Below, piece after piece: positions 1 to 21,299 of a stretch of 64,000 nucleotides of DNA (the first letter of the stretch is position 1; each line of letters opens with the position of its first letter). Under the pieces are notes generated by a model. The model was not told the DNA's origin, ran no database searches, and was given only the letters and a program-made list of their open reading frames with translations. Source of the DNA: Schmidtea polychroa (taxonomy: Eukaryota); the NCBI GenBank assembly GCA_044892525.1, contig CM097887.1, positions 23,126,001 through 23,190,000 of the forward strand, in the 5' to 3' direction. Both the position numbers and the translations under genes were made by a program.

Positions 1-3000
1 TTGCTCGTTGTTACCTACTTTCATGAGTTTGTGTAATGGTGTGTCTCCGTAATGATCTGTTATTGTAAATAATATTGGCCATTGGCTTTTGACTACTCGC
101 AATAATGGGTGTGTCCTTTCTCTATTTGCATAGTTTTCGATCATCGTTAATAATCCTCCTAATATTTCGAAGTCTAATCGATCTTTTGCCCATCCGGGTA
201 ACTTGATTTTTACTTCCTTTACAATTTTTTCCGCTTCCGATGGTTGTATGCCCAATCGTCCGATGATGGGTTCTGCAAGTTGTTGCATCATGTTTATTCT
301 GTAGGTTTGCGAACGTGTAGTTAATGTACAGCCTTCTGGTTGACTGGTGGCTGTTTTTGGAATTGATTTGCATCGTGCCACGTTTACGTATATTGGCCTG
401 GTGAATGGGTTATTTACCAATTTCACTCTTACGTTGGTTTCGCCTACGAATAGAATCTCATATGGCCCTTTTCCGTTGCGTTGTAACTTTTTTGTGGTTC
501 CTGGAATTAATTCTGGTGTTTCTATCATTACCCAATCACCTGTTTGAAAAGTGTGTTGCTTCACGTTTTTCTTTCGATCGTGTAAATCTTTATAACTTTC
601 CTGGTAGAACTTGATATTTAACCCCGCGGTTTCCCAAATTTCCTGCATTCTCTCTTTGAATTTCGTAACATAATCGTCTATCTCCATGTATTGCGATATT
701 GGTGGTTGGTATTCCAGGTCCATTGGCATGTTGCATTCTCTCCCGTACATTAATTTAAATGGGCTCATTTTTGTTGACGCATGAATTGACATTCTATAAG
801 CCATAAGACATAGATTTATGTATTCATCCCAATCTCGCTGGTGACGATCGACGTAATTTGACAACATTTGTATGAGTGTTCCGTTAAATCTTTCCGTCAT
901 CCCATTGGTTTGAGGGTGATATGGAGATGTTCTTAGTTTTGCGATTTTGAAATAGTTTGTTACTTCGTTCATTATCTCGCTCATGAAATTAGTTCCTTGA
1001 TCTGTTAATATTTGTTTTGGCGTTCCATATCGGCAACATATTTCTTCCACTAAGATTTTTGCGATTGTTTTAGCTTTTTGGTCTGGCATCGCGAATGCTT
1101 CTGGGAATTTCGTAAGAAAGTCTGTGATCACTAGAATGTAAACATTTCCTTTATCTGACTCTGGTAGTGGACCAACTACGTCCATGGATATCATCGTCAT
1201 CGGCTCTATTGGTACTGGCATTGGCGTTAAAGGCGCTTTCCATTTTGATCCAGTATTTTTCCGTGTTGCACATGTTAGGCAGTTTTTCACCCACTCGCTT
1301 ACGTCTTCCGTCAAGGTTGGCCAAAAATATTTTTGTTTCATTCTTGCTAACGTCTTTTTCGATGACATATGTCCTCCCAATCTACCATCGTGATATTGCG
1401 TTAGTAAATCCTTCCGTCGGTTTTCTGGCACACACATTAATCTCTTCTCTCCATCCATTATCAGTAACCAATCTTTCTCTATAATATATCGATGTCGGTG
1501 TTTATCCATATGTTCTTTTAATTTTTGATCTTTCGCATATACCTCCGTCTTTCCGGTTTTTACATAATCGATAATCCGTTTCAGTTCTACGTCTTCTTGT
1601 TGGTCCTTTCGCAATTGACAGAAATCTAAATCTTCCGCTACTATTAAGCATATGCGTTGCATTGCTGAATCCACCAAATCTGGGAAAATAAATCTTGACA
1701 TACAATCGGCGTTGGCATTTGCTCTTCCCGCTTTGAATTTTATAAATGGGGAGTATTCTTGCAATTGCATGGCCCATCTCATCAGTCTACTGGACGCTTC
1801 TTTATGTTGCCCTAACCACACTAATGGTTGATGATCTGTGGTTATACATATCTCATGTCCCCATAGTAAATATCGGAAGTGTTTGATAGCTTGTATTATA
1901 GCCAATGCTTCTCGTTCTGTTACCGAATAGTTCTTCTCGTGCTTTTTGAATGTTCGACTGTAATATCCAATTACTCTTTCTTTACCTTCGTCGTCTAATT
2001 GTCCCAAAATCGCGCCTGCCGCGTACCCGCTTGCATCCGTTGCTAATAGAAATGGTTTCTTGAAATCGGGGTGTACGAGGATAGGTGCTTTGATTAGTTT
2101 GTCTCTCAGCGTTTCAAACGCCTCTTGTTGTTCCTTCCCCCAAATGAACGAAATGTCTTTCTTTACTAATTCCTGGATTGGTTTTGCAATTCCTGCATAA
2201 TTTTTGATAAATTTGCGATAGTATCCGCATAATCCTAGAAATTCCTGAACTTGGGTGACAGTTTTCGGTGCTGGACATGTTTTTATTTTCTCAATGTTTC
2301 TTGGATCTGGCTCCTTTCCTTTAGCTGACACTATGTGTCCCAAAAACGTGACTTTTTCCTTTGCCCAATCGCATTTTGATGGTTTGAGTTTGAGTTTCCA
2401 TTGTCGTAATCGAATAAATTTCTTTTTTAATTCCCTGATTTTGGTGGTTGGGTGTACTTCTACTTCCTCAACATTCTTATCTGGGTATTTGATTCGGATT
2501 CGGTATCTCTCTTGGGTATCTTGTGACCACTCATGGTTTCGCCACTTCCCGATAATTTGCTCCAGTTGTTCCGGGTACCATTCGTTGTATTGTCGGTATT
2601 CTTCTATAGTTTTTACTATCTCTCTCAGATAATGGATATTATCCGATATTTTTAAAATGAAGTTAGCTAATGTTATTACTTGTCGTTTTTGATTTTTCGC
2701 TCCCTTTATTAGGATATCGCCTAATTGTTTATATCTTTCTCTCTCTTCTCGTTCTCTTGCTTCCGTCGCTTCCTCGCCGTCCATATCAGCATATTCACGT
2801 TCCTTTTTCCTCATTGCATGAATATGTCTCGCTTCATTTTCGCTTTCTGATGTGACATCCGTCTCGCTTTCGTCATCTGATGTCTGTTCCCTTGCTTCCT
2901 CTTCATATTCTGGAGGTCCCTCTTCTTCCTCCTCCGATTCACTTTCTGTCTCGCCAATGTCTGTTTCTACGAAGATTCCTTTCCGGATTTCCCATTCCTT

Positions 3001-4629
3001 ATTCTCTGCATTCCACACTCTTTCCCATGGGGTTCGTCTGCAGGATCTGGTACTTAGTTTCGTGATTTTTCCTTGTAGTTCCTTTTCTTTTAACCATTGT
3101 TGGTGGATTTCAACTATTTCTGTAGATTTTTGATATAACGTTTTCATCCGGTCTCGTATTTCTTTGTGATATGTTACATCTCTTGTTCGAAATTCATCCA
3201 TTGGTACTATCCTGATTATCTGATGATTGTCCCACATACCCATTTCGCTTAACGAGGTGTCGTCCTCCGCTCGTAATATTATTTTATCGTACATCATGAC
3301 TACATCATCTACCATACCATCACTACTTTCGCTACGTACCTTTTCCGTTATCTCTTGGTTTATCTTTGATACCAAGTCATCCACTGTACTCTGATTGCTC
3401 ATTTTTATTCGTCGTTTCTCTTCGTTCGGTAACCATATGGTTATTTCTAACTTCTGTGGTTGGGTCTCCTTTAACCTTCCATATTTGTGAATCAAATTTA
3501 TGGTTCTCCAATCACTCATTCGGAGCATTTCTGTATCTCGCAACCGGCTCATTAGTTCGTACATGGCTGGGGCTCGTCTGGTGATGAGTAAATCCCAGTT
3601 GTCTTCCACTTGTTCTTGAACTTGTTTGATCAGCTTGTCCAGGTTTCGTCTCAGAGTACATTGCTTTATTTGTTCTAATTTCAATTTGATATTAAAATCA
3701 TATTCCGCCTTGGCATCTTTAGCCCAATCGTAAAGGTTGGCTGGTTGTTTTTCTTTGTGCAACTTCAATATTTGCGTTTCTCCTGGCCATATTAGTGCGT
3801 CTACTAAGTGCATATCTGGTTTGATCTGTTCACCTTGGTATTGATACAGATATTCTTTCTTTCTCGAACTTCCCAAATGTTCTCGTATCCAATCGAAAAG
3901 TTCGTCGGTGACTGTATTTTTTATCCACATTCTTTCAAGTCCTCTACTCGTTCCGATTTTTATTACACACCGCGTGGTATCGGCCTGCTTCATTTTTTCC
4001 ATATACTTTTTTATAATTGATTTTTCCTCGTTTGGTATTAGATCTTTCTCGTTTCTTTCCAATTTCATCACTTTTTGTACGAATCGTCTGAATGGTATTA
4101 TATCGATGAACTCTTGGTTCCTCACTACTACTGGGAGTATTTCAGCTACTTGTTTTATCGCTTCCTCCCTCTCTTTTCTCAACTTTATTTCGATATCCCC
4201 GTCTTCACTTCCGCTGGTTGTCTCGCTTTCGCCTTCTTCCTCTTTGATTTCCCCTTTTGGAGGTTCGCTCATTTCATTTAGCTGTAGTATTTCTCCACCC
4301 AAACTGCTCACATAGTCTTCATCTGATGACGACGTACTTTTTATCCTTTTCATCATGTTAATGTGCAAATTTCTCATCCTTGGTACTCGCTTTAGTTTCT
4401 TTCTTTCAAATATCGTTGTTTCTTTTGATTCTAATTCTTGTAGCATTTGGTGGTTTAGTTGACTGGTTTGTTCCTTGCTCTTGTTATTTTCATCTTCTGT
4501 CTCGGTTTTCGCTTTATTATGTTCTTTTTCGATTTTATCTTTTATCTTTTTCCAGAATATTTTCTGAATTCTCTGGTTTCCTTTTAAAATCGTGGTTGAA
4601 TTCTCTGTTTTCATTTCCGTTGTTGTCTT
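1..4629 (-). CDS. pol: Pol-type polyprotein, 1543 codons open to window edge: acidic/coiled region, ubiquitin-like domains, RT C-terminal part only, RNase H, integrase, ankyrin motif
   Basis: Manual translation found no stop from 4629 to 1 (not in the ORF track because it has no stop in the window). Motifs: LKLKPSKC..FLGHIV, FLGLCGYYRKFI, LATDASG (RNase H), YHDGRLGGH..CLTC, SMDVVGP, LTDQGTNF, YHPQTNGMTERFN, GPY, DHYGDTPLH. Confidence 0.92.
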
Positions 4630-5923
4630 TTACTAACTTCATCATATTTATTCGCAATGCTTGTTCTTGTCGTTGTTGGTTGCGTTCTTGTTTTATCCTC
4701 TCTTCCTCGGCCTGTAGTCTTTGCCATTCTTGTACATGTTGATGCACTTCATAATTGTTGAGATTTTCGGTACTCCTCATCATACGTATATTCTGGGTTT
4801 GTTGTGGTGCTGATTCTTGTCTTGGTCTCATCATTTGTTGCATCATCTGTTTCATCTGCGAAATTTCCTGCATAACGTTCATTTGTTTTCCTTCGTTAGG
4901 GTTACTTTGTCGTTGCGGATTCGCCATATAATTATTATTTCGCGGTGGTGGTCGTTGTTGTTGGCCCCTTTCTCGGCAATCTCTGGAGATGTGACCTGGC
5001 TGACTACAGTTAAAACAACCTCTCAATTGGCATACATTTTCGGTATGTCCACGCCGTCCGCAACGATTACAATTTGAATTTCTATAACAATCTCTGTCCC
5101 AGTGTCCTGGTTTACCGCATGTTCGGCATTGCTTGTTATCGTTCAAATTTCGTCGATTATTAAAATTGTTCTCATTATTCAGGTTGTTGCGATTACCATT
5201 ATTCCCATTTGATCGTCCTTGTGGTGGTTTGAAAATTTGATGCGCTCCTGGTATAAATTGATTCATTTTCGGTTCTTGATTGTTGTTATCTCCGTTATCC
5301 GCTTTCGCTATTGCTGTCGCTATCCTCCCATCCTCTTGCATAATATTCACTTGAGCTGGAAGGTGGAGCTCGCATCTTGTAGCCCAATCTATGGCTTCCT
5401 CTAATGTTTTGCACATTTGACAACCTACTGAGGCTCTTACTTCTTCTCGGCGTAATCCCTCTATGAAATAACCGATCAGATTTTCCTCGGGTAATTTTCC
5501 ATTCATTGCTTTCTTCGCTAATCTCCGCAATTCACTGGCATACAATGTTATCGATTCGTTTGCTCTTTGTTTCCTATTTGCTAGTTCGCCCAACGCCTGG
5601 TTGATTGGCTTACTGGCTCCGAAGGTTTTCTTCAGGAATGTTTTGATATCTTCCCACTTTTCTAATTTCGTATCTCTCTCTTTAGCTTCTAAATATACTT
5701 CTAATGCGCTATCGCACAAAAACAACGGCATCCTTTTGCTAATTGCTTCGGGTGTCCATCCACACACTGTGATATACACTTCAAAATTAGTTATAAATGT
5801 TGCTAACTTGTTTGCATTTCCGTTGAACGGTTCTCCTCGGAACTTTTCTTTATACTCATCGGTTTTTACGGCATTCGTCATGATTGGTGTTCTAGATTCG
5901 TCTGTTTCTTTTAAATTATCCAA
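4535..5923 (-). CDS. gag: Gag (capsid-like region plus three CX2CX4HX4C knuckles and N/Q-rich linker); frame open upstream to 6219
   Basis: CRTCGKPGHWDRDC, CNRCGRRGHTENVC and CFNCSQPGHISRDC; retrotransposon gag-like RKQRANESITLYASELRRLA; overlaps the pol frame (+1) at 4535-4629. Confidence 0.92.
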   Translation of the reverse strand: MDNLKETDESRTPIMTNAVKTDEYKEKFRGEPFNGNANKLATFITNFEVYITVCGWTPEAISKRMPLFLCDSALEVYLEAKERDTKLEKWEDIKTFLKKTFGASKPINQALGELANRKQRANESITLYASELRRLAKKAMNGKLPEENLIGYFIEGLRREEVRASVGCQMCKTLEEAIDWATRCELHLPAQVNIMQEDGRIATAIAKADNGDNNNQEPKMNQFIPGAHQIFKPPQGRSNGNNGNRNNLNNENNFNNRRNLNDNKQCRTCGKPGHWDRDCYRNSNCNRCGRRGHTENVCQLRGCFNCSQPGHISRDCRERGQQQRPPPRNNNYMANPQRQSNPNEGKQMNVMQEISQMKQMMQQMMRPRQESAPQQTQNIRMMRSTENLNNYEVHQHVQEWQRLQAEEERIKQERNQQRQEQALRINMMKLVKDNNGNENREFNHDFKRKPENSENILEKDKR

Positions 5924-6219
5924 GGATGTGACTAAACTTTGGGCTGCTAGTTCTTCGGTTGACGTTGCTAAACTATTAGTTATGTCGGACAGACTTTCTC
6001 TGCTTCGAGATCGACTAGGGGTATATCCGAGATTTTCTTGGTCAAATATGGGTACTTGATTGGTTCTTCTTGCTCCTTGTGATATTCCTCTTTGATGTTT
6101 AATAGATCGTCCTCTTTTGAGTTGTTGTAATTTGTCTCCTGAAAATAATACGTCTCCTGACTTACTTGATGATCTGAGATGGGGTTTATCCGTGATTCTT
6201 TTCTTACGCTTCTTTGTAA

Positions 6220-6540
6220 TTAGCGGCTACTGAACCGGACGAGTTCGGATCTGATTACGTTTCCTTCGAAAAGTATCCTGTATGAATCTGCTACTGAGAT
6301 CCTGAGGAGATTTACTAGTCCTTGGCAGATGGCTGCTAATACTATGAGGTTGAATATATCGGTGATTCGTTCGAAGTTGGAGATGTCGCTATCTGTATCT
6401 TCTTCCGTTCTGGAGTCTTCCGGTTGCTGTGTTTCTCGGTGCGGGTTCTGAATGGATTTATTCTTGGTCGATTGTCGATTTCCTCGAATTCCTGTTGTGC
6501 AGGTTCTGGATTGTCTTGGTTGACTGGATTGGTTTGATAT
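6220..6540 (-). CDS. ATG-less ORF0 in the gag frame, starting at a splice acceptor and ending in a single TAA
   Basis: tttttttcattttAG|ATA TCA AAC at 6541/6540; open for 106 codons (includes hydrophobic DIFNLIVLAAICQGLVNLL); the same frame continues after the TAA into gag. Confidence 0.45.
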   Translation of the reverse strand: MSNQSSQPRQSRTCTTGIRGNRQSTKNKSIQNPHRETQQPEDSRTEEDTDSDISNFERITDIFNLIVLAAICQGLVNLLRISVADSYRILFEGNVIRSELVRFSSR

Positions 6541-8034: not shown

Positions 8035-8510
8035 TTAATAAACCATATGGGTTTCTTTTATCCCATTTTTATATATTGTACATCGCTTCAGATCTTTCAC
8101 GCACTCTTCACAATGACTGAGGTGTCCACAAGGTAAGAATAGTGTGCGTATAGGGCGAAGATTGCAAGACAGACAGGTTCGCAATTTGGTGAGTTTCTCT
8201 TGTATCTTTTGTTCGATTGCCTCTGATATTGTATGTAGTTGATCTTTTATTCGCTCGTATTCTAGATTTAGGGCCGGGTTTTTAGTCGTTTTAGGTACCA
8301 TTGATATACTGTTTCGTGATTTATCTTTTCATCTGAGTGGCTTAAACCTGCGGCCAATAACACGTGATTAGGTACGACTGGTGTATGTCCGATTGCTTGG
8401 AGTAAAATGCTGTTGATTCGCTTTCTTTTTTGTATGAGTGTTTTAATAGGGTCGTTTTCTATATTAATGAAATTAATTAATTGTTGCATCTGTTCTGCGA
8501 ATTCCGTCAT
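8035..8510 (-). pseudogene. IAP-type RING finger protein, frameshifted (about 158 aa if repaired)
   Basis: ORFs 8268-8510 and 8035-8301 join by restoring one A in the A-run near 8282. CLSC-x11-CGH-x3-CEEC-x6-CTIY matches IAP RING spacing with the last Cys changed to Tyr; C-terminal aromatic residue present. Confidence 0.8.
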
Positions 8511-9377
8511 GTCTATTGAGAAAAGGAAAAAAAAATTTTTTTTAATAATATACAGCTAATTAATGGTTATTTCATCAAACATTTTCTTTTAATTCGTTAT
8601 AATTTATTTTATTTTTATCCTATTTCCCGATTATTTACTTTATTTATATCTTTAATTCTATTATTTTCTAATCGTAATTTCTAATAGGATTCGATAGGCA
8701 TTAGTCAATTTGCATTCGCCCACTAATTGACATCGATAATCCCGGTGAATTCACATTATTCGACAGAAATTCCATATTACATCCCGGCTGAGCCCCCAAA
8801 AATTATGCTGGGGTAGTGCTTGGTTGACTCTGCTCAATCTACATCCTTGTCTAGGGGGTGCGTGTCCATATCATTACGCTACATACGCCCGTGTCAACCC
8901 GGAGCAGGACCCCGCACAACTTGCCCTCCAACATAGCACCCGCGAATTGCTTCACGTTGGAAATGTGCTATGCCGGCGAGACTCCAGTAAGCAGGTGAGC
9001 CCCTACCTTAGGACTACTCCTTACTGAGGCCTCGACTTCCCTTTTCTGACGGCCGATGGAAGGACTTACGTCTGTTTACCTCATCAGATTCTCTCTCTAC
9101 CCTGACCCATTATTCGGCACAAAATTGACCACTGCCTCTCGAACTCAAAATTTACTCTCGCTTTGCGAACACTACTCTGAACCTTTACCACAGCTAGTTA
9201 GATTTAAACAACAACAAAAATTTAACCAAAAATTTCTTTATTTTATTATCATGATACATTAGATAATTATACACTACATAACAAGTACACTTGGTGGAGA
9301 ATAGATTAAGAAGAAAAGGAGTCATGATAGTATATTTGTCCATTCGCACCCTGCACGGTTGTATTGTGTTGCGGCCC

Positions 9378-10121
9378 TCACTTCTCCCACCCCGCATCCG
9401 CCAATAGCTCATCTAGATCAAAAAACTCGGAGGCATTCTCCTCCCAAGTCACACCAGCGGCAGATATGATTCGCCCTGGGATTCCACCGGTCAGATCGAT
9501 CGTTACGGGTGGATCATTCGAAGCACTTGGGTGGTTGGCAGATAGTTCTCGTTGTTTGACAATTGCTCGTTCACGTTGGCGCTTCTTACGCTCCGCTCTG
9601 GACAATTGGCGACGCTTAGGTTTTGAGGGGTTAGCAGACAAGATTGCCGAGGACGTCGTGGCTGAATGCGATACCTTGCCAGTGCCGGGAGTAGGTACGT
9701 CCGATGGCCTGGGGGAGAGGTCGGCCTCCACACATTCCTGACAAGATCTTTTCGACAAGGGTGGCGAACTAAATGAAGGTTCATGGTGAACGGGGAAGAC
9801 ATTGTCCGCTTCTTTAATCGGAATACTAACGATCCTTCGGGTTGTAGCGGCTTGAACGTAAACTTTATGTAGAGCTTCGGACTGCTCTTTGATTAGGCTA
9901 CGCTGAGCTCTACTTTCGCTTATCAAAGCATCGCGACAATGCTCACTGCGGTACAATTTCTTTTGAACTTCCTTCATTTGTACTGGGCTAAACCATGTAC
10001 CTTCCAGATCGTCGATTTTCTTTTTATATCGACCGATCTGGGCCTGTAATTCTCGGATCACGGTGTTTTTGTCGGCACAGGAGAAACAGGGTTTGAGCGA
10101 CGGCTTCGAGCTTGGCAACAT
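9378..10121 (-). CDS. Accessory ORF (247 aa): CxxC plus coiled coil, Ser/Pro linker, basic NLS-like segment, acidic-aromatic C-terminus
   Basis: Intact ORF with ATG 9 nt after acceptor tttctttgttacAG (10131); KPKRRQLSRAERKKRQRER; EENASEFFDLDELLADAGW; AATAAA at 9237-9247. Confidence 0.75.
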   Translation of the reverse strand: MLPSSKPSLKPCFSCADKNTVIRELQAQIGRYKKKIDDLEGTWFSPVQMKEVQKKLYRSEHCRDALISESRAQRSLIKEQSEALHKVYVQAATTRRIVSIPIKEADNVFPVHHEPSFSSPPLSKRSCQECVEADLSPRPSDVPTPGTGKVSHSATTSSAILSANPSKPKRRQLSRAERKKRQRERAIVKQRELSANHPSASNDPPVTIDLTGGIPGRIISAAGVTWEENASEFFDLDELLADAGWEK

Positions 10122-11986
10122 TTTTGATAACTGTAACAAAGAAACAATGAGAATAAGAATTAAGATCGGCGATTTCTACTAAACTAGTATGGACACAATC
10201 ATTGGTTGATTTTCGTAAAATTAAGTAAAAGGAAAAAAAAATAAATAAATGATATAGTTTCGTTAGAAATAGTGTTAATTGCATTCAGTGAATTTTTAGA
10301 TGTCCATTTAGGGTGTAGGAGAAATTAACATTTGAATAATACTCTGCCAAAAATTTATGGTTATACTTAAAATATCCATTACCTACTGTTATCTGAGATT
10401 TTCAAATATTTACGTGAAAAATGACTCGCGAATGTATTGACATAATGGACATTAGATTTACAGTTTACCATAGAAATGGTTTAGGAAGAATCAGGAATGT
10501 TTGCATGATTGAATAATTAATGTTCATTTTTGCACATAGCTTTTCGACTACAGATATTTATTTTTGAAAAACGTAAAACAAAATTCTCCAGTGCCGCGTG
10601 AACGATCCTTAAATTAATGGCCCCAAATTGTAACTCATATTTGAATATTAAATTCAGAAAACCCGTTTAATCAACGTGCTACTATTAGATATTTAATAAG
10701 TCGCGTATGATCAGATTTCTATCCCCACCCTAAAAATCAATTTATTTATTTTTCATTATGGAGTCTACTGGTGCAATCAACCTATAAAATTTAGTCGATT
10801 ATTAACAGTCATCCGACGACGCATGAATCACTCGTAGAAATCATTAGCCACATGAATCGGAAAGATACGTATCGATTGGAGATAATTATGTCATGTGCGT
10901 GTGCCTCAGTTTTTGTTCTCACCGTCATTAGCGGGCTGGGAAAAGGATGCATGCGGCATATGTCAATGTGTATTTATATGTGGCAATGCGTGTGATTTGC
11001 CTTGTCTGCTTTCTTACTATCTATGTCAACGGGTTGCAGCTGATCGTCTCACACTGCGAGTTGGAATTATTTTAGTTATTCAATATGTTCTCTATGAGTA
11101 ATTCTCACCGCGCATGAACGTTGGAATTTTATTCTCGCGATGTGCAGTTCCCTCCGTTTTTCAACTTGGATGTTGTGATTTCGGGGAATATTCCCAGCAG
11201 TTCATTCAACAGAAATCTCTCTTATTTTGGTCGAAAGAGTCATTTATAGAAAGAACCTCGCGTTGCCGCTATCGTGGATTTTCAGGAGCAATGGAAAAAT
11301 TACAGCGTTTGTTGACAATTATATTTATACTAAAAATCTTTTGTTGAATAAATCTTCATTTATGCTCTCTATATTCTGATTTCGCATTTGATGAACATAT
11401 TTGTACGCGGTAAGTTTTGATAGAAAAATATTTTTCTGCTAAAAGATAGAATGTCAGTTGATGTCAATATACGATTTCTGATGTCAGTGTGATGTTTACT
11501 AAGAGTTTGTAGCCACCTCAGTCATTTTCAATTCAGATTTGCTCTACTTTTCAATATTGGAATATATTCCTCTGTACTTTAAACTCGTGCTTGCAGCATT
11601 ATATTTCCCTCAGCGACGGACCCGTGAGGAAGCCCCCACATTCCGGCCCACGTCAGCTGCGTGATTGAAGAGATCCACACCCGCCGGCTGAGCTCCCGAA
11701 GGCTCCTCATACCATGGCGTGGGTCTCCTCAACTCCACGTTTCTCAAAACAAATAATTTTAGCATAATCAATACGTTCGATGACAAAACATAACATAAAT
11801 ATTTATATATCATTAACCTTTAAATTAATTTACGAACTATAAAATCATTAAAAATTGAAATCGAATGGAGAAGTTTTTATTCAAAGGTTAGGTTAATATA
11901 ATAGAAATATTTAATCCTTCAAAAAACAAATTTCATAACAGCAATACATCCTTACTTCATTATTTGAAAAATTCTGTAGTTCCAAA

Positions 11987-12549
11987 GGCTGAGCCGAAAT
12001 ATAAACTGATCAAATCGGTTATATGAATGAGTAGTCTATAGAACTGTCCCTAATAGTCGTCTGAGTATGGTTTGGTTTTCCTGATTGTCGAGTACCTATA
12101 ATTGGTTTGGTTTTAACATTTTTATATAGTTAATACTATTCTTACCTATAATTGGTTTGGTTTTAACATTGACTATAGTGAATTTGCTGTTTACTTATAT
12201 AGGTATTTTTTGTTTATGCGGACCAATCAGAATTGAGTACCGCCTTATTTTATTCATTTAATTTATTTTCCTTGTTTTTGGGTTATTTCTTCTTATTTTC
12301 TTTATTAAAATTATGTTTTTATTTATTTTCCTTAATTTCCTTATTATCTACTACCTTTTACGTTATTTTTCGTCATTCTATTGTCCTATTTAATTGTTCT
12401 TATTTTTATGTTTTTTGTTTTAATTCTTATTTTCTAATTATTGCTTTTCTTATATTCTATTCTCTTTTATTCCTCAATCTATTTATTTTATTTTATATTT
12501 TTCTTTAGTTAAGTTTAACCTGATTTCCCAACTATCTTTCGGCTCAGCC
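11987..12549. mobile_element. MITE-like element with 13-bp terminal inverted repeats
   Basis: GGCTGAGCCGAAA at 11987 and its reverse complement ending at 12549; non-coding interior with a duplicated 29-mer; no clear TSD. Confidence 0.55.
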
Positions 12550-13359
12550 CAACACCTGGGAAGAAGACGCAAGAGACTTATTCGATCTTGATGTGATCTT
12601 CGTCGGAATTTCCCCGACAACTCTATAACAAGTGTGTGAATGTCTTAACGTTGTGATTGTACGAGTAGATTACCCGTTGTTGAATTTTTCTTTTGTGTGA
12701 TATTAGGACTGTAGTGTGAAGCTACCCCAGGAGCTGGTGATGATCGATTTCGTAATAATGTGTATTTAAAATAAATCTTTTGCGTTAACTAGTAAAGCGA
12801 GTTTGCGAATTATTATGCTGCATTTGTGTTGTAAGATTGAAATGGGTGAAAATGGTATATATAGGTTTTACTATTTCTAATCATATTTCTCAAGTTACCT
12901 CGTACGCTGGTTACGCCAGGCTGTATGCGGCGAGGTAATTTCCCATGAAGGTTTCATATCACGAAATTTTGAGATCTGGGTCCTTCAAGGCTTTTAACCA
13001 ACATTTATTATTAATTCATGTATATATAATTATATATTTATTTATTCATATTTTTATTTATTTGAGTTGCTACCCATAGGGTTCTTATTACAAACGTATT
13101 TGTATTGGAATTTTTACTATACTATTTTATATTATATTTTATCGAATTTCTGATTTAAATTTTCTAAACTAGTTTTCTATATGAATTGCTTATGAATTAA
13201 TCAATTATTGTTTTATGGGTTTTGACTATTTTGGTTTTAATTTATTTTGTTTACGTTTATTATTTATTTAATATTTTGGTAAGATTTACAGGTACACAAA
13301 ACAAATAATTGAGGATACTAAATTTTATTTATTTATCACAATTCTTAATGTTTTATTTT

Positions 13360-13640
13360 CTCTCTGGTAGCTGGTCACGACTTTCTTGAGCTCCGATTCT
13401 TCTCCATTGATGAAGTTGATATAGTTCCAGAAGAAAAACAGTTAACGACTCGCTGTATTTCGAAAGCAATGCAACCTATTTCACAGGTAATGGACATTTT
13501 TGTAGATAATAACCCTGACGAAAATCAATGCTTAACGGTTACGCGAACTATTGATAGCGCTATCATTTGCTATAAAGAAATTTATATGGAAAAAATGCTG
13601 CACGAGTTCAGCAAACTTTAAACAAGTTTTTAACTGCAAC
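13360..13640 (+). pseudogene. Possible pogo/Tigger transposase C-terminal relic
   Basis: TIDSAIICYKEIYMEK resembles the CYxEIYxEK tail of Tigger-type transposases. Confidence 0.35.
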
Positions 13641-13894
13641 ATTACGAGAACCAAACCAGAATCAGTCTACAGAAACGGTAATCGATTTAGAATCGTCAAG
13701 TTCATCAAATTAGAATTAAGAAAAAGAAAGTTACAAACTGTTTCTGTGTAGGGTTTAACACACGAATATATTCGTCGAATACTATTCGAATAATCTCTAC
13801 AGTAGATGGATTGGGCACCGCTAGCACAGTACCCCCCGCCCCCCGGTCGTAAAAAATTAAAAAAAATTTTTTTAAAGGTCAAATTTTAAACAAA

Positions 13895-14270
13895 GACATA
13901 TGACTCATCAAGGTCATTGAAACAAAGACCATGACTCATCCAATGACTCATCAAATTTCTCGAGGTCATTTAAACAAAGACCATGACTCATCAAGGTCAT
14001 ATGACTCATCAAAATTTTCAAGGTCATTTAAACAAAGACCATGACTCACCCAAGGTCATATGGCTCATACTATGACTCATCAGGTCATATGATTCATACT
14101 ATGACTCATCAAGGTCATTTTCAAGGTCATATGCCTCATCAAGGTAAAAAATTCCCAAGGTCATTTTCAAGGTCACCTGAGTCATCCTATGACTCATCAA
14201 GGTCATTTTCAAGGTCGCATGACTCATCCAAGGTCATATGAGTCGTCGCGATGAGTCATCAAGGTTATAT
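13895..14270. repeat. Subterminal array of ATGACTCAT and (TC)AAGGTCA motifs
   Basis: At least ten ATGACTCA/TGAGTCA motifs interleaved with at least ten AGGTCA motifs, often as ATGACTCATCAAGGTCAT; TTCCCGCCAA (E2F-like) at 14326. Confidence 0.9.
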
Positions 14271-14427
14271 CATTATTTTTAAAAAATATTATTATTTTTA
14301 AAAAATATTATTATTTTTTTCAAAGTTCCCGCCAACGAAAATTATTTATCGATAGCTCATTTTAAAGCTCAATCCAAGACCTTTCGAATGAGCCATATAT
14401 CTTGTTATTACGATTATTCTTTCTAAA

Positions 14428-14500
<73 letters not shown>
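14428..14500. repeat. (ATT)n microsatellite
   Basis: Direct inspection. Confidence 0.95.
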
Positions 14501-14501
<1 letters not shown>

Positions 14502-14656
14502 AAAAAAATGTTTTTTAGTTTTGTTGAGTTTTTAATTAAATAAATATTAACGTCAGAGTTTTGATGTTCTGAAAAACAATTATTTATGTTGCGGCCCGCC
14601 GGCTCATAATACTAGTCTAATGCGGCCCGCAGGCCAGTTTGAGTTTGAAACCCCTG
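14500..14656. mobile_element. hAT (Charlie/Buster-like) terminal fragment inserted into the Polinton arm
   Basis: Minus strand reads CAGGGGTTTCAAACTCAAACTGGCCTGCGGGCCGCA from 14656, a typical hAT terminus with GCGGCCCG repeats. Confidence 0.65.
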
Positions 14657-14910
14657 ATCTATAGGTTCATCTATAGGTTCATAGATTTCCTCATCAATTT
14701 CTTGAGTTTCTTCCTCATCATCAAATCCTGTATCTTGACTCTCAACTATCCAGCCGATATTTAAGGCATTTGTAATAGATAATATGTCCTCAATTTTCAC
14801 ACCAGCTATTTCTGCTAACTTTTCCAACAAAAAGTTGATTACAAATTCTAAATAATAAATAATTCGGTAATTAATTAATCATGTTAACCTTTTTCTGCAG
14901 TCATTTTCAT
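14657..14910 (-). pseudogene. Polinton small acidic-tail gene, 41-nt intron (14848-14888), 3' end cut by the hAT insertion
   Basis: MKMTAEK-E|FVINFLLEKLAEIAGVKIEDILSITNALNIGWIVESQDTGFDDEEETQ after GT-AG splicing; TATAAA about 27-32 nt upstream of the ATG. Confidence 0.5.
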
Positions 14911-15036
14911 CACTTTAAAACTATATTATAAGTTTGTTTATAGATTTTCTTTGTTAAATTTGCATGTCATTTGCATTTATGTTGCAATTAATAAAGAGAA
15001 AAACAAATATGACTAATACATTTATTAAATAGAACA

Positions 15037-15429
15037 TTAAAATATTTGTGAAAGTCTAGCAGACATAATTTTCCAAATAGGAGAATATACATCATTATTA
15101 TCAACTTTATATCCCTGGATTGCAATTGTTATATACCAATTTTCATTTTCTTTGAAACTGATTTCATCAAAAGCATCATAAAATCTTGCATATCTATTGT
15201 TGAACCATGCATGTTGATTACACGATAGATTCGAATCTAACCGTTTAAAAACATCATCAATAGTTTTGACATCAATCATTGAAAGCGTGCCGGATAAGAA
15301 TTGAAATTTAGTTGAAATTAGCTTGACTGGTGCAACCAATTTCATATTGATTTCTTCTTTCAAAAAATACATTTTATAGTTGTGGAACATTTCTTTAGGT
15401 TTTTCGGTGCATGAAATTTTCTTGGTCAT
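15037..15429 (-). CDS. Polinton-associated protein (130 aa), possibly an OB-fold ssDNA-binding protein
   Basis: Intact ATG-stop ORF; C-terminal WYITIAIQGYKVDNNDVYSPIWKI resembles viral T7 gp2.5/DUF2738-like SSB strands (by eye only). Confidence 0.6.
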   Translation of the reverse strand: MTKKISCTEKPKEMFHNYKMYFLKEEINMKLVAPVKLISTKFQFLSGTLSMIDVKTIDDVFKRLDSNLSCNQHAWFNNRYARFYDAFDEISFKENENWYITIAIQGYKVDNNDVYSPIWKIMSARLSQIF

Positions 15430-15462
15430 AGTGAATAATGATTAAATTGAAATGTTACAGGG

Positions 15463-15540
15463 TTTTTATACCTTTGACTCATGCCTATCAACCAATCAGA
15501 TTATAGCATGTCTTTGTTTAAATTTGCATGTCATTTGCAT
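15463..15540 (-). promoter_or_regulatory. Pol II-type promoter: two octamers, CCAAT, AP-1, TATA
   Basis: ATTTGCAT at 15522 and 15533, CCAAT at 15493, TGACTCA at 15475, TATAAAAA at 15470-15463, ATG at 15429. Confidence 0.65.
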
Positions 15541-15751
15541 TAATGCTGCATTTATGTTCTATTAATGTGACATATTATTATTAATGTTTTATTATTAATG
15601 TTTTATTATTATTACTATTTATATTACTATTTATATTATTTCTATTATTATTATTTCTATTTATATTATTATTACTATTTATATTATTACTATTATTACT
15701 ATTTATTACTATTTCAAATCTAAAAACGCAATAGAAACAAAAATACATTTA

Positions 15752-16162
15752 TTAATATTTATCAACAATCCGGGAGTAGTGAAACCTTCTCAGAGTTTTC
15801 ACTAACTCCCATTCGACATATCGCCGATATCGATCGGCACAACATGAACATCCGAACATATTTTGATACTCCGGCTCCATTTGTTTCATGGTTCTATTAA
15901 TCTTGATATCCCATAGGAATTGATGGAATACCTCCATGGTTCTAATTTGAGTGGAATAGAATATGAGATCCGGAATGATTTCTGGTTCTCTATCCTTGAT
16001 TATTTCTGCAATTTGAGGATAATAATATTTTATCCTATTCAGCATTACTTCTAAATATTTTTCTAAAATAATAAATATAAAAAATGTGAAAATAAAAATT
16101 TTAAATTTACCATAGTCGTCAATATCTTTCATTAGATTTGCTGCGCTTGGTATTTTGTACAT
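15752..16162 (-). CDS. Polinton orphan gene with a CxCC motif and a 48-nt in-frame intron (16063-16110)
   Basis: MYKIPSAANLMKDIDDY-E|KYLEVML...FGCSCCADRYRRY. The low-complexity GKFKIFIFTFFIFIIL stretch is exactly a GTAAAT...TTTTAG intron. Confidence 0.6.
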   Translation of the reverse strand: MYKIPSAANLMKDIDDYGKFKIFIFTFFIFIILEKYLEVMLNRIKYYYPQIAEIIKDREPEIIPDLIFYSTQIRTMEVFHQFLWDIKINRTMKQMEPEYQNMFGCSCCADRYRRYVEWELVKTLRRFHYSRIVDKY

Positions 16163-16221
16163 TTTGTTGAATAAATGAATCCTAAACAAAAAACCGTTTG
16201 TTTAAATCAATCAATAACCAA

Positions 16222-16656
16222 TTAGAAATCGACCAATGAAATTATCTCATTTCGAACATTGTCAACAAATTCTCTATACTCCAAATTTCTCAACCCCAAC
16301 ATGACAACCTTTCCACTAGCAAACACGTTGACACATATAAGGTTATATTTTAATAGTCTTATTGCCGGAAACAATTCCGGTTCAAACATACAATCACATT
16401 TTTTCGACATGTTATATAGATTGATACTATGTCCCATATCCATAGTAACGGTAATTGATTGGATTATAATATTATTTATTCGATATTGCAATTTATTATC
16501 CAAAGGTTTCTTACATCCCATGATTCGGCATTTACCAGTCTTGAAAAATATTATCGGATATTTCCCGCTTCTATCGATAATTTGCTGGGGTTTCCCTGAT
16601 GGGAACCTCATATTCGATACATCAAAATTTCCTCGATAATTTATATTTGCTAACAT
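16222..16656 (-). CDS. Minimal TATA-binding-protein (TBP)-like protein, 144 aa, two repeats
   Basis: Repeat 2, IQSITVTMDMGHSINL..MFEPELFPAIRLL..VNVFASGKVVMLG, aligns to TBP IQNMVGSCDV..IRL..YEPELFPGLIYRM..LLIFVSGKVVLTG. Repeat 1 retains NI..IIFFKTGKCRIMG. Confidence 0.88.
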   Translation of the reverse strand: MLANINYRGNFDVSNMRFPSGKPQQIIDRSGKYPIIFFKTGKCRIMGCKKPLDNKLQYRINNIIIQSITVTMDMGHSINLYNMSKKCDCMFEPELFPAIRLLKYNLICVNVFASGKVVMLGLRNLEYREFVDNVRNEIISLVDF

Positions 16657-16759
16657 TATTAAATCATTTATGAAAGTTAGTCTTTATATACAAATTGAGC
16701 ACGAGTTCAATAAATCATCGAATATAAACAAATACACATATATTTTTAAAATTTTTGAA
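16657..16759. promoter_or_regulatory. Bidirectional promoter between the TBP-like gene and the ATPase
   Basis: TATATAAA on the minus strand about 28 nt upstream of the TBP-like ATG; TATAAA at 16723 about 32-37 nt upstream of the ATPase ATG (16760). The background is AT-rich. Confidence 0.45.
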
Positions 16760-16892
16760 ATGGAATTAAGAAATGATGCAGTATACCAAATCGTTGGTCC
16801 GAGTGGTAGTGGAAAAACATTATTTGTTTGCAAATTACTAAAATCAAATTTATTCAAAACAAAATTCAACAGGATTTATTGGCATAGGGGTG
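16760..16892 (+). pseudogene. A32/FtsK-like packaging ATPase N-terminus, truncated
   Basis: MELRNDAVYQIVGPSGSGKTLFVCKLL..FNRIYW: Walker A plus the downstream F-x-x-I-Y-W strand of Polinton ATPases; sequence switches to piggyBac after about 16892. Confidence 0.75.
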
Positions 16893-18601
16893 TAGATTTT
16901 GTAGTTCAGAAGAAGAGGACATTACTGACAAGAGTACAGAGGCAGAAGATAACTGTAGTTCCAGTTATCAAGACGAAATTGCACCTGTTCAAATACCAGA
17001 CCCACTCGACCTACCATGGAGTTTTTCTTTAAGGTCTCATCCAGCGTTTCTTTTTTAAGGCGATTCTGGTATAAAGCTTGACAATTTAAACAAAGATAAC
17101 CCTATCCAACTGTTTGAATGTTTTTTTTTACTGACGAGCTTATAAATAAAATCGTTGTTGAAACAAATCGTTATGTGGAGCAGTATCTGAACTATAATAA
17201 AGACAATATAAAAAATCAATTTCGAGTAAAAGAATGGACAGCAACTATTATTATTCAGGGAATCTGCATAAATCCAGAGTGTAGATTATATTTTACGAAA
17301 CGAGAGAGCATCGAAACACCATTGCTTTGTAAACAACAAGGAGTTTGATGCTAATTCACCAAACCGAAGATTATTCAAAATTCAGCCGTTTATGTTCCTA
17401 ATCAAAAGATTTCCATTGACGAATCATTGATTGGGTGTAAAGGCCGGCTCGCCTGGAAACAATATATTCCCTCAATAAGAAAGAGATTTGGAATGAAAAT
17501 ATTTGTATTGTGCGAAAGTGAAACTGGTTATGTATACAATTTTTTTATTTATACTGGCTCGAGTACCCAGCATGGGAATTCCATTTACCTGATGAACCTG
17601 TATTTGGTAGAGTCGTATTGGAGTTATCACATTCGCTTCTGAACAAGGGTTATTGTTTATACGTTGATAATTATTATACCAGTCCCGATCTTACTGATAA
17701 ATTAATAAAAAGACGAATAGATTTTGTTGGAACGATGAGAGTAAATAGAAAGGGAATTCCAACTGAAATAAAATCTAAAAAATTACAAAAAGGAAATCAT
17801 ATTGCAATGTACAGAAGAAAACAAATGATAATGAAATGGAAGGATAAAAAAGATATAGTAAAATATAGTAATAGCACGATTCATGACGATAGTAAAAAAT
17901 TAGTAAAAGGAAAAAGCGGGTTCAAGGTGGAAAAACCGACTGTAGTGTTAGATTATAACTCAAGAATGGGAGACGTAGACTTGGCCGATAATATGCTCCA
18001 TTTTTACACATCGGCAAGATGTCGCCTAAAAAAATATTATATGAAAATATATAGGCATTTTTTAAATGTGGCTTCTCTTAATTCATTTATTTTATACAAA
18101 AAGCTAGGAGGACGGAAAAACCGCCTCAACTTTCTCTTAGATTTTTGGGAACAAATCGTAGAACAATATGCCACAGAAAAGGAGGTTTGTGGAAGAAGAC
18201 CAAAAATACCGAGACCATTGCGATTCCTTGAACGACATTTCATTGGTCTAATACCCCAAACTACGAAAGAAAACCCCACAAAACGTTGTGTAGTATGTTC
18301 CGAAAATGGGAAAAGGAAAGAGAGCAGGTATTGATGTGCTGATTGTTATACTGGACTTTGTCCAGCAACATGCTTCAAAATTTATGATACGAGAGACGAA
18401 AGAAATTGACCTAAATTGACGAAATATGTTAAAAATATATCATAAATATTACTTTTGTTAACATATTATCTTAATAAATATCATCGAATAAGATATTTTA
18501 TTTTTGTAACACTATGCCCAAGATGTATATATACGCTAGCGGATAACAAAACTCGCCGCTGAGGAGCGCATTTCGTTTGACGAAATAAACCACTTAAGAG
18601 G
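16893..18601 (+). mobile_element. piggyBac-family element, 5'-truncated, transposase with stops and frameshifts
   Basis: FFTDELINKIVVETNRY, SIDESLIGCKGR, LYVDNYYTS, VGTMRVNRKG, YNSRMGDVDLAD, C-terminal RCVVC..KESRY; right end ...AAGAGG followed by TTAA at 18602. Confidence 0.9.
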
Positions 18602-19149
18602 TTAAATAACATTATATTAAAAATAACTATTAAACCCATCATCATCTGACATCAGGGATGCTGAAAACAACAATAATACTAAAAATAGAAATTGTTTTAC
18701 ATTTAAAAATAGAAAATTGTTTACAACATAACAAATGTTAATGCTAAGAACTACAAAATTTTAGTATATAAACCAACGTTGAGATTCTTGGAATCTCAGC
18801 ATATACATCAATAACCACTGAACTTAAATTTCGGCCAGCACTTCACTGAATTTCTGGAAATTAGCTCTTTCCAACTCTATATCACATATATCATTAGAGT
18901 TTAAAAGATATCAATACTAATTGTGAGGAAGGATTAATTCCGATAGGTCATGCTGTAAGCAGAGCGCCCTGGCGCATGACACGCAATGAAAATCGCAACC
19001 GATAGGATGCGGCTAGCGTTTTGAGAAATCAAGTGTTCTTACCTGGATCGCCATCTGCTGTTATGATTACTATCGGCTTCGCTGATTTATATATTTGCAG
19101 ATAGAAGACTGAAAAGCAAATTTATACTAATGGGACAAGTCCCTTGTTT

Positions 19150-19500
19150 TCTTAGGTTAAGAAGACCATGTTTTCACATCAATATTGTCTTGTAACTTTG
19201 GTACCATGTTTAAACATTTGATCATATAATCTCACTCCAGTCTCATTCGACAATGATAATGATTGCTTCCCCATTTTCTCCTGTAGCCGTTGTTAAAGTT
19301 GGTACTAAAGCATTTAACAAATTCTCTTCTATAATTCTTTAATCAAGTTCGGAGTCAATTAATGCATGAACGGAGTATTTTATGAATTGTATTAGGTTCT
19401 TTCGGCATTTGTTTTATTTTCTAATCAACTTTATCTACTTATCTGCATTATCTAGTACACCACAGCGCTTTCCAGCTTCTTTGTAGAGGTGCCAAATTTA
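19150..19500 (-). pseudogene. Gypsy gag/protease relic
   Basis: Decayed VHALIDS (aspartic protease-like) downstream of the LTR at 19517-19928. Confidence 0.4.
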
Positions 19501-19516
19501 TTTAAAATCACTATAT

Positions 19517-19928
19517 TGTAACAAATGTAGAAAATTATATATATTCAGGGAACCCATTAATTGTTAAATTATTGAGCTTAGAAAGTAAAACGAGATACAA
19601 AATGAAAATGGATATTTCCGATTTTCAAATATTATTTCCGGATTTTCAAAAATCTATAATTTTAAAAATCAATAAAGTCAATAAAAAATAAAGTCGATAA
19701 AAAAATAAAATCGATAAAAATAAAATCATAAAAATAAAATCAATTAAAATAAATCGATAATATAGATGGAAAATATGCAATAAAATCAATAGTGCTAAAA
19801 TGATTAATTATCAATATATAAAAACTAAGATTATTATATTATAAATAAAAACACAACACTAGTAAATAAATATACGAAATAAACAGTGGTCAATGAATAT
19901 TAATGAATATTAATAACACTATGTTACA
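19517..19928 (-). repeat. LTR (412 bp)
   Basis: TGTAAC...GTTACA termini; purine tract AGGGAGGAAA immediately upstream on the minus strand. Confidence 0.65.
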
Positions 19929-20895
19929 TTTCCTCCCTGGCACCTTACAAATTTTATTATAAAAAAAAATCTTGTTGGCACAGACCAAAAATTGTCTAAG
20001 AGAATTCGTTTTATTAAACACACTCACATTTACGAATAGTCAGTTAAAGCACTTTCTATTTAAATAAATGATTTTCCGGTCTGTTGGAATTTATAAACTG
20101 ATTTTTGTACAATTTTTTATTACTGCTATTATTATTATCAAGAGTAGGACAAAATTCTGTGGGTTTCGGTATTTGATTTTCCAGGTTGACTGATAGGTCC
20201 ATATCCTCGAATTCGCTGGCAAAAATGAACTGGTTGTTTAATTCCGGATTAAATCTCGGTGACTGAACGCTGGAAATGTAGACGGAGATTTTAAACTTAA
20301 ATTTATCAATAAATGAAAACAATAAACTTTTAACCACGAGCGCTATATTGACGATTTTTTTCAGAACTGCAAGTGACGTGTATACCACGTCGATAGTATT
20401 TGTCGCAAAAACAAAAACAAAAGTAGACTATTGATTAATAAAATTTATTGTTGTTGTGAATAATTATTTATATTCGTGTAAATCTTTTATGTAAGACCCT
20501 GCCCTCGCGCTAAGCACTGGTCAAACCTCTGAGCTCGCTGACGCGGTGAGGCGTCGATGCCTTACGATATTTTATATAGTAGAGCGCGGCTCAGCTACCG
20601 AAAATTAAATCATAGCGCAAGTGGTTAAAATAAATTTGTACATTTAGCACTCAAAATTGCAAATAATATCCAAATTAAATATATTATTGAATCAATATAT
20701 TGATAAAATTTTTTGATGATTTTATAAACATTTATTGAATTAAATATAAAATATTGAATNNNNNNNNNNNNNNNNNNNNNNNNNNNNNNNNNNNNNNNNN
20801 NNNNNNNNNNNNNNNNNNNNNNNNNNNNNNNNNNNNNNNNNNNNNNNNNNNNNNNNNNNNNNNNNNNNNNNNNNNNNNNNNNNNNNNNNNNNNNN

Positions 20896-20912
20896 AAATA
20901 AATAATAATAAT

Positions 20913-20990
<78 letters not shown>
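20896..20990. repeat. (AAT)n microsatellite next to an assembly gap (N at 20760-20895)
   Basis: Direct inspection. Confidence 0.95.
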
Positions 20991-20992
<2 letters not shown>

Positions 20993-21299
20993 CTGCCATG
21001 TGACCCCTCTGTGATCCAGACGTTAATAACTTTTATTTAAAACTTCTAAGCATAAAGTTGTATACTACTATGTACCTTCTAAAATCGAGAATGTGAGTGC
21101 ATATTATCTTTGACTAAGTATTTGGTTTGAATTCTAATGTGAAAAGACTTCCATTTTAGCATGTGATTTAATATTTTTAAACATATCCAAAATGAAATTG
21201 TGAAATTTTTACAAAATGACATTTATCAACTAAAATAGAATATTTTCCAGCAAAATGCCCATATTAATATTAATCCACCTATTTAATCCATGATAAAAA

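Follow-up and report, generated by a model that had tools for sequence, protein, structure and literature searches.

The window analysed here, a stretch of 64,000 nucleotides from Schmidtea polychroa (assembly GCA_044892525.1, contig CM097887.1, positions 23,126,001 to 23,190,000 of the forward strand), carries a copy of a giant Burro-type Gypsy long terminal repeat (LTR) retrotransposon whose polyprotein contains predicted ubiquitin-like (Ubl) domains. An earlier note, made from the letters alone, had pointed to three beta-grasp-like segments in this polyprotein. We found all three where the note had placed them, in one open minus-strand frame that fills window 1–4629 and extends past the window to a length of 2,516 amino acids (aa); one Lys had been dropped from the Ubl1 sequence given there (SSRKKEY). 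The features of this region are listed below, with the ratio of nonsynonymous to synonymous polymorphism (pN/pS) and the predicted local distance difference test score (pLDDT) where relevant.

3748–3984, minus strand: Ubl1, 79 aa, predicted beta-grasp without a Gly-Gly end
3190–3459, minus strand: Ubl2, 90 aa, predicted beta-grasp with a lengthened helix, without a Gly-Gly end
2419–2517, minus strand: N-terminal half of Ubl3, which a deletion interrupts; the whole domain of other copies has 77 aa
3985–4218, minus strand: helical segment preceding Ubl1, helices predicted at low pLDDT; no Pfam match; pN/pS 0.13
3460–3747, minus strand: helical segment linking Ubl1 and Ubl2, predicted helices; pN/pS 0.05
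2518–2751, minus strand: helical segment preceding Ubl3, aligning with the helical part of helix+Ubl units in three distant families; no family match
4351–4365, minus strand: candidate protease site ahead of the Ubl1–Ubl2 module, a recurrent five-residue motif
2812–2826, minus strand: candidate protease site at the boundary of the Ubl1–Ubl2 and Ubl3 modules, the same motif, at the same place in the sister family

Copies of this element are numerous and similar. A genome search with the Ubl1–Ubl2 region gave 824 candidates, of which 142 were scored; all 142 were 93–100% identical to the query, and about 59 (counted by eye) carried a single frame of 4,732 aa. The copy that we used for comparison (contig C1, ~261.957–261.987 Mb) is 29.9 kb long, with LTRs of ~3.9 kb that are 99.87% identical to each other. 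Its polyprotein runs Gag, Ubl1, Ubl2, Ubl3, Bcl-2-like region, Env, protease, reverse transcriptase (RT), RNase H, integrase and ankyrin repeats. The Ubls had been described as lying between Gag and RT. They do follow Gag, but in the family the Bcl-2-like, Env and protease block comes after them, and RT does not adjoin. Env (PF24664, E 8.7e-69) is in frame, with the Bcl-2-like region on one side and the protease on the other, and is deleted in the window copy. The Bcl-2-like region is weak in the window family (PF00452, E 0.11) and scores E 5e-6 to 2e-3 in three related families (families 3–5, below); a profile from all five families gave 51 PDB matches, to Bcl-xL and Bcl-2 only, at E 0.003–0.01. 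The segment of 140 aa between protease and RT, the position of the Burro dUTPase-like domain, had no Pfam match at E 0.05. RING and ankyrin genes had also been named in the earlier note: RING is indeed found in an accessory open reading frame (ORF), but the ankyrin repeats (PF12796, E 2.1e-18) lie after integrase within the same polyprotein rather than in a separate gene. The accessory ORFs of the window family are the RING ORF before the polyprotein and a RING–zinc finger–MATH (TRAF-like) ORF after it. By Pfam scan, MATH is absent from the family's polyprotein and present in this downstream ORF; the scan covered pieces of the polyprotein and seven accessory ORFs and gave no match for BIR. A 371-aa accessory ORF showed no similarity to the BIR-RING ORF that flanks the polyprotein in a sister family (family 2).

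The window copy is defective and would not make Ubl proteins. Compared with the comparison copy, it has three losses: 80 bp, which shifts the frame after Gag; 4,965 bp, which leaves the frame intact; and a single base pair within the RING ORF. The 4,965-bp deletion removes the rest of Ubl3, the Bcl-2-like region, Env, protease and N-terminal RT, and joins the N-terminal half of Ubl3 to the C-terminal part of RT. Its junction has one exact match genome-wide, and each of 56 other copies fetched (the 19 ranked highest and 37 chosen by hand from the 142 scored) has an intact Ubl3; the truncation of Ubl3, and with it the contact with RT, is therefore damage private to the window copy and not design. 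Contigs of four sequencing runs cover the stretch, with loose ends at 2412–2419 in three of the four. The other parts of the element within the window are as follows.

2419–2420, minus strand: junction of the 4,965-bp in-frame deletion, from comparison with a natural copy
4626–4627, minus strand: 80-bp deletion, after which Gag and the Ubls no longer share a frame in the window copy; the Gag frame ends at 4535
4535–6226, minus strand: Gag (Retrotrans_gag, three CCHC knuckles; PF03732 E 2e-10, PF00098 E 2.8e-11)
913–2403, minus strand: C-terminal RT remnant, RNase H and integrase (PF17917, PF17921, PF00665), placed by copy comparison
8035–8555, minus strand: upstream RING (C3HC4_3) accessory ORF (PF13920 E 1.2e-09), split by a 1-bp loss
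8806–12554, minus strand: 5' LTR (TG...CA), with a 4-bp target duplication, CAGG

The RING ORF has 178 codons in the comparison copy (PF13920, E 7.6e-11), and a partial 3' LTR of the window copy, 99.6% identical to the 5' LTR, lies 7.4–9.8 kb ahead of window base 1. Next to the large deletion, window 2419–2800 is a mosaic: it is 78–84% identical to the comparison copy, versus 91–98% elsewhere, and 96–99% identical to copies L112 or L101, which suggests recombination between subfamilies.

The Ubl segments are not confined to one family. Four more families in the genome carry them, making five in all with two or three Ubls each. Family 2, the sister of the window family (family 1), has a polyprotein of 4,791 aa with 89% RT identity and all three Ubls, with MATH between Ubl2 and Ubl3; the homologue P0003 also has MATH between Ubl2 and Ubl3. 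Families 3–5 (49–50% RT identity) have two Ubls each. In all five families, Ubl3 or its equivalent stands ahead of the Bcl-2-like domain. Two word-indexed homologue searches returned no matches, and a HMMER search of representatives returned P0003, P0004 and one unrelated protein.

A helical segment of ~80 aa precedes each Ubl. Both units of families 3–5 align with the unit that precedes Bcl-2 in families 1 and 2, and they are also similar to one another (E 1.6e-10 for the Ubl parts, E 1.9e-4 for the helical parts). From these alignments within and between families, we infer that the helix+Ubl units likely arose by an old internal duplication inside the Burro lineage. Between families 1 and 2, the Ubls are 40–42% identical and the segments flanking Ubl1 25–28%, while the helical segment preceding Ubl3 is 51% identical to that of the sister family. 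No family match for the helical segments was obtained in Pfam and profile searches. A candidate identity as TFIIS N-terminal domains (TND; PF08711) gained no support: the score of 12.8 against four host TND sequences equalled that of reversed and shuffled controls, and the helices were poorly modelled.

Taken singly, the sequence and model evidence that these segments resemble ubiquitin is thin; taken together, it is good. Below the cut-off, the N-terminal half of Ubl3 matched PF11976 (E 0.0067), whole Ubl3 matched PF00240 (E 0.0035), and Ubl2 of families 1 and 2 matched OTU1_UBXL (E 0.0022), UCH_UBL1, UBX and UN_NPL4. A joint profile of 10 Ubl segments from four families gave 376 PDB matches (counted at E up to 1), and the best 60 of the 376 were all ubiquitin, ISG15, RAD23B/ubiquilin UBLs or ubiquitin-derived chains. 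In a leave-one-group-out test, seven of eight Ubl1, Ubl2 and Ubl3 segments scored above all 200 shuffles; for the eighth, a single shuffle in 200 reached its score. The nearest ESM Atlas clusters at 0.90 were UBX for Ubl1 and Rad60-SLD/ubiquitin for Ubl3, with fewer than 170 common features, and serve as leads only.

Structure prediction gave a consistent picture for two of the segments. With a 13-row alignment, AlphaFold2 (AF2) built two beta-grasp domains, Ubl1 and Ubl2, at pLDDT 50–73. The top Foldseek matches of this model were di-ubiquitin and ISG15 (E 1.8e-5). By VIA-align, the best match was SUMO-2 for Ubl1 (Z 8.3, root-mean-square deviation 2.6, 71 residues aligned) and the FAF1 UBX domain for Ubl2 (Z 8.1, deviation 2.1, 72 aligned). 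The 50 VIA-align rows were ubiquitin-fold chains or tags, judged by the title or identity of the entries, and SUMO, UBL and UBX matches tied within 1 Z unit. Single-sequence AF2 of the three-Ubl region (mean pLDDT 38) placed strand-strand-helix starts at all three segments, and a fold search with that model returned long helices only. We therefore assign a beta-grasp fold to Ubl1 and Ubl2 with moderate confidence, and predict one for Ubl3 from its sequence and Atlas matches. The description of the segments as beta-grasp-like thus holds for the moderate models of Ubl1 and Ubl2 (Z ~8) and the joint profile, but by sequence alone Ubl1 and Ubl2 are weak.

All three Ubls are under strong purifying selection. 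We compared 57 copies, separating variants common to at least two copies from singletons and counting alleles rather than events on a tree. For shared variants, pN/pS was 0.04 in Ubl1 (N/S 10/61), 0.06 in Ubl2 (14/51) and 0.08 in Ubl3 (16/55), compared with 0.05 in the helical linker between Ubl1 and Ubl2 and 0.10–0.24 in the other flanks; singletons gave 0.29–0.69. The earlier note had raised neutral evolution, or absence of the segments from other copies, as signs of a spurious call, and we observed neither.

The segments differ from ubiquitin at its tail and at its main recognition surface. No Gly-Gly follows Ubl1 or Ubl2, and across the five families none of 12 segments has Gly-Gly at the ubiquitin position; the one pair close by, in Ubl2 of family 2, is found neither in family 1 nor in P0003. 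The segments are 13–22% identical to host ubiquitin. The position equivalent to Ile44 is Gln or Tyr in Ubl1, Met in Ubl2, Gln in Ubl3, and Lys, Arg, Thr, Ile or Met in families 3–5, and Leu8 is kept in 1 of 12 segments. The Leu8/Ile44/Val70 patch is thus not kept, with the alignment register least sure at position 70. Because both the Gly-Gly end and the Ile44 patch are missing, conjugation and Rad23-style proteasome binding are unlikely. The proposal that these are integral, non-conjugatable Ubl domains is supported, in an element that also has RING, TRAF/MATH, ankyrin and Bcl-2-like parts.

The reading that we prefer, and rate a little above an even chance, is that the three predicted ubiquitin-fold domains are non-conjugatable docking modules of an anti-death and ubiquitin-signalling kit, rather than ubiquitin itself. 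It builds on their place in the polyprotein, purifying selection, the recurrence of two or three units per family across all five, and the missing Gly-Gly end and Ile44 patch. TRAF-like, RING and, in family 2, BIR-RING ORFs flank the polyprotein, and we count these in favour of docking. Families 1 and 2 each contain seven occurrences of a five-residue motif (in 300 shuffles, the mean was 0.7 and the maximum 5); it brackets Ubl1+Ubl2 in both families, and further sites follow the protease core and lie where RNase H borders integrase. The element's own protease may cut at this motif. A first product would be an Ubl1+Ubl2 protein, with a TRAF-type MATH domain added in family 2; a second would be an Ubl3 + Bcl-2-like protein, left in the membrane by the hydrophobic Env signal segment. 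The Ubls might then bind host proteins of the ubiquitin pathway or of death signalling, or the element's own TRAF-like and RING proteins, and such docking could help the producing cell stay alive.

Several results weigh against this reading. Having the fold of ubiquitin does not make a domain part of the ubiquitin system, and selection marks the whole module, not a ubiquitin-like surface, because the linker is as constrained as the Ubls. The fold assignment itself has gaps: Ubl1 had no ubiquitin-clan match in Pfam, neither Ubl1 nor Ubl2 singly had one above the cut-off, and four-sequence profiles of each, built without the MATH domain of P0003, found no ubiquitin in PDB. Pairwise profile matches of Ubl1 and Ubl2 to host ubiquitin were weak (E 0.047 and 0.2). 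The AF2 model is only moderate (whole-model mean pLDDT 51), its alignment contained other Ubl rows that may have aided the fold, and a Z near 8 is a level that the tool calls common. Finally, the protease motif was chosen once the sequences had already been inspected, and it had 0, 0 and 1 matches in families 3–5.

The strongest alternative, which we consider possible and clearly less probable than docking, gives the Ubls a structural or assembly role in the particle that the element makes: they would bind Gag or nucleocapsid, or stabilise neighbouring domains, and would be unconnected with host ubiquitin signalling. The Ubl domains of coronavirus nsp3 may be a parallel. The Ubls come directly after Gag, among acidic stretches, ubiquitin recognition surfaces are not kept, and helix and Ubl are equally constrained, which speaks for this alternative. 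This is harder to square with the TRAF-type MATH domain inserted into the Ubl1–Ubl2 module in family 2, and with an Ubl ahead of the Bcl-2-like domain in every family.

More doubtful is the idea that Ubl2, or Ubl1, acts like a UBX domain and brings the p97/Cdc48 segregase to proteins of the element. The FAF1 match of Ubl2, the sub-threshold OTU1_UBXL, UBX and UN_NPL4 matches, the UBX clusters nearest to Ubl1 and the Lys/Arg at the Gly47 position of Ubl2 in families 1 and 2 all point this way. UBX domains, however, use a Phe-Pro-Arg loop and a beta-1 Arg, whereas Ubl2 has Tyr-Asp-Lys, Tyr-Asn-Arg or Tyr-His-Lys and a Trp or Lys in beta-1, so that only an aromatic-x-basic echo is kept; Ubl1 has a ubiquitin-type turn, and the tie among SUMO, UBL and UBX matches favours none of them. 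When Ubl2 was modelled in complex with the p97 N-domain, taken from a host paralogue, the score was 0.08, which weighs neither way. We hold a bolder version at least as lightly: a self-evolved helix+Ubl module in which Ubl2 would be a UBX mimic, recruiting host p97/Cdc48 to a TRAF/Bcl-2/IAP complex and blocking death and immune signalling in particle-producing cells. If true, it would be a case of a retrotransposon steering a host segregase.

Improbable, in our view, are Rad23/Dsk2-type proteasome-binding domains. The joint profile does match RAD23B and ubiquilin UBLs (E 5e-4 to 9e-4), and Ubl2 has Met at position 44. Rpn1, Rpn10 and Rpn13, however, read the Leu8/Ile44/Val70 patch, and the residues at positions 44 and 8 given above do not fit the link through Rpn1 or Rpn10 raised by the earlier note; moreover, a Pfam scan of the polyprotein found no UBA domain.

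We give still less credence to the Ubls as processing signals for host deubiquitinases or UBL proteases, in the manner of pestivirus ubiquitin and UBL inserts, which serve as cleavage signals. The polyprotein context would suit such a role, and in families 1 and 2 a single Gly stands a few residues past the last strand of Ubl3 (L022:4910–4915, L031:4318–4323), by its sequence a possible UFM1/ATG8-style processing site. Against this stand the missing Gly-Gly in all 12 segments, a lone nearby pair that its relatives do not share, and low identity to host ubiquitin, compared with a BEL/Pao element in the same genome that keeps both Gly-Gly ends on real ubiquitin. Chance resemblance or neutral filler would agree with single-segment scores below Pfam cut-offs, but it is contradicted by pN/pS, presence in five families, the joint profile, the leave-one-out test and the fold matches, and we give it next to no weight.

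The ubiquitin-like part of Burro is thus a module repeated two or three times and kept under strong selection, lacking the conjugation tail and the proteasome patch, and its units are probably divided among two products, one linked to TRAF and one to Bcl-2. This turns a one-line annotation into small expressible domains with testable partners. The finding adds detail to a known element; it would become a new kind of system only if a host partner such as p97 were shown.

Other features of the genome were noted in passing. The dispersed BEL/Pao-type LTR family (C1:15639508–15644779, L131:5508–10000; C3:69466685–69472563, L133:4685–10000) carries a near-canonical di-ubiquitin, both units ending in Gly-Gly, in frame before Gag. 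Captured host fragments precede the di-ubiquitin, including a DSPc phosphatase and, by eye in L066, L069 and L070, Rab- and proteasome-alpha-like pieces; no YxDD motif was present in the two ORFs checked. A p97/Cdc48 paralogue forms one open frame of 787 codons (C2:57996243–57998006, L129:1–1764), with intron-containing copies elsewhere. Near-identical TFIIS-N (PF08711) genes, IWS1-like by eye, cluster at C2:164–172 Mb and on C31 (L136, L139–L146).

Around the window copy, long inverted repeats link window 12554–23136 to the flank on the other side of the element, in stretches of 6.4 kb (99.7%), 1.9 kb (95.6%) and 1.2 kb (99.8%), and the comparison copy has a similar 6.6-kb inverted pair beside it. 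The comparison copy is inserted in a (TTA)n microsatellite with a 4-bp duplication (L021:4140–4165, L024:4082–4115); the window copy is not in a microsatellite. About 1.3 kb of the window LTR (10183–11500) is unlike the LTR of the comparison copy and is an LTR variant, its first kilobase (to 11184) being repeated in the copy's own partial 3' LTR. A 265-codon ORF inside the LTR (9378–10175, minus strand) is found in both LTRs of the comparison copy and matches no Pfam family. Just after the 5' LTR, a stretch like a primer-binding site (8780–8800, minus strand) resembles the tRNA-Pro site of gammaretroviruses. Short ORFs at 15037–17032 (minus strand) and 17522–18334 (plus strand) include, by eye, TBP-like (16222–16683), ATPase-like and piggyBac-like transposase fragments.

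Among known systems, the closest is Burro. The window family has the length of ~30 kb with long LTRs, the single Gag-to-Pol polyprotein, the in-frame Env, the BCL2-like motif (weak), the Ubi2/SUMO-like motif before BCL2 (below cut-off) and the ankyrin repeats, and so bears out the earlier mention of Burro, as these elements are described in PMC6431247. Because it has no MATH in ORF1 and no BIR match, we classify it by sequence as a Burro-type Gypsy, a sister family of Burro1 and not Burro1 itself. According to the same paper, Burro-like giant LTR retroelements have Gag-to-Pol polyproteins of ~4,900–5,100 aa, about half of the polyprotein is unexplained, and planarian genomes hold thousands of copies (PMC6431247). 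That text also already presents Burro1/GYPSM1 as a 'tinkerer' with ubiquitination and apoptosis, and names one Ubi2/SUMO-like motif (PF11976), between MATH and BCL-2, which is the Ubl3 position (PMC6431247). Whether Burro's domain set had been annotated was left undecided in the earlier note; this one motif had been, but the tandem multiplicity is absent from the searchable texts. In the literature searched, the Burro ubiquitin-like motif is described only in PMC6431247, although Grohme et al. 2018, the Repbase entry and Fig. 2A of that paper may mark more; the parts consulted of PMC8532177, PMC11410931, PMC13524379 and PMC8797187 add no domain annotation. BURRO1 RNA is reported to increase in smedwi-2(RNAi) animals (PMC8532177). 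One of the three Ubls is thus already published. What our analysis adds to this literature is two additional Ubls, a helix+Ubl unit that recurs across five families, the evidence on selection, and the absence of a conserved Ile44 patch.

Compared with Burro1/GYPSM1 as described in that paper, the window family shares the size of ~30 kb, one polyprotein near 4,800 aa, a Gag with three CCHC knuckles, the Ubi2/SUMO-like motif before the BCL2-like region, Env between BCL2 and protease, and ankyrin repeats, but has two more Ubls upstream of the one motif named there (PMC6431247). Burro1 also has MATH inside ORF1 and a BIR, whereas the window family has MATH in the downstream RING-TRAF ORF and no BIR match. 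Since Ubl1 and Ubl2 both occur in the MATH-bearing sister family and in P0003, equivalents are probably present but unannotated in Burro1. The Burro-like element of Dugesia tigrina is similar in lacking MATH in ORF1, having it in an accessory ORF, and in its reported Ubi2/SUMO-like motif and Env; it differs in having 5,140 aa, two knuckles and an upstream MATH ORF, compared with 4,732 aa, three knuckles and a downstream one in the window family (PMC6431247).

Beyond Burro, the closest likeness is to type II Ubl domains (UBX/UBXL, Rad60 SUMO-like and Rad23/ubiquilin UBL), which share the predicted beta-grasp, the absence of a conjugation tail and embedding in larger proteins; the Burro Ubls differ from them in being 13–22% identical to ubiquitin, lacking the Ile44 patch and the UBX FPR loop, and each following a helical domain. 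The ubiquitin and UBL inserts of cytopathic pestiviruses also place a ubiquitin-fold domain within a viral-type polyprotein, but these are recent captures of host genes, whereas the Burro Ubls are old, divergent, fixed in whole families and without Gly-Gly (PMC2850149).

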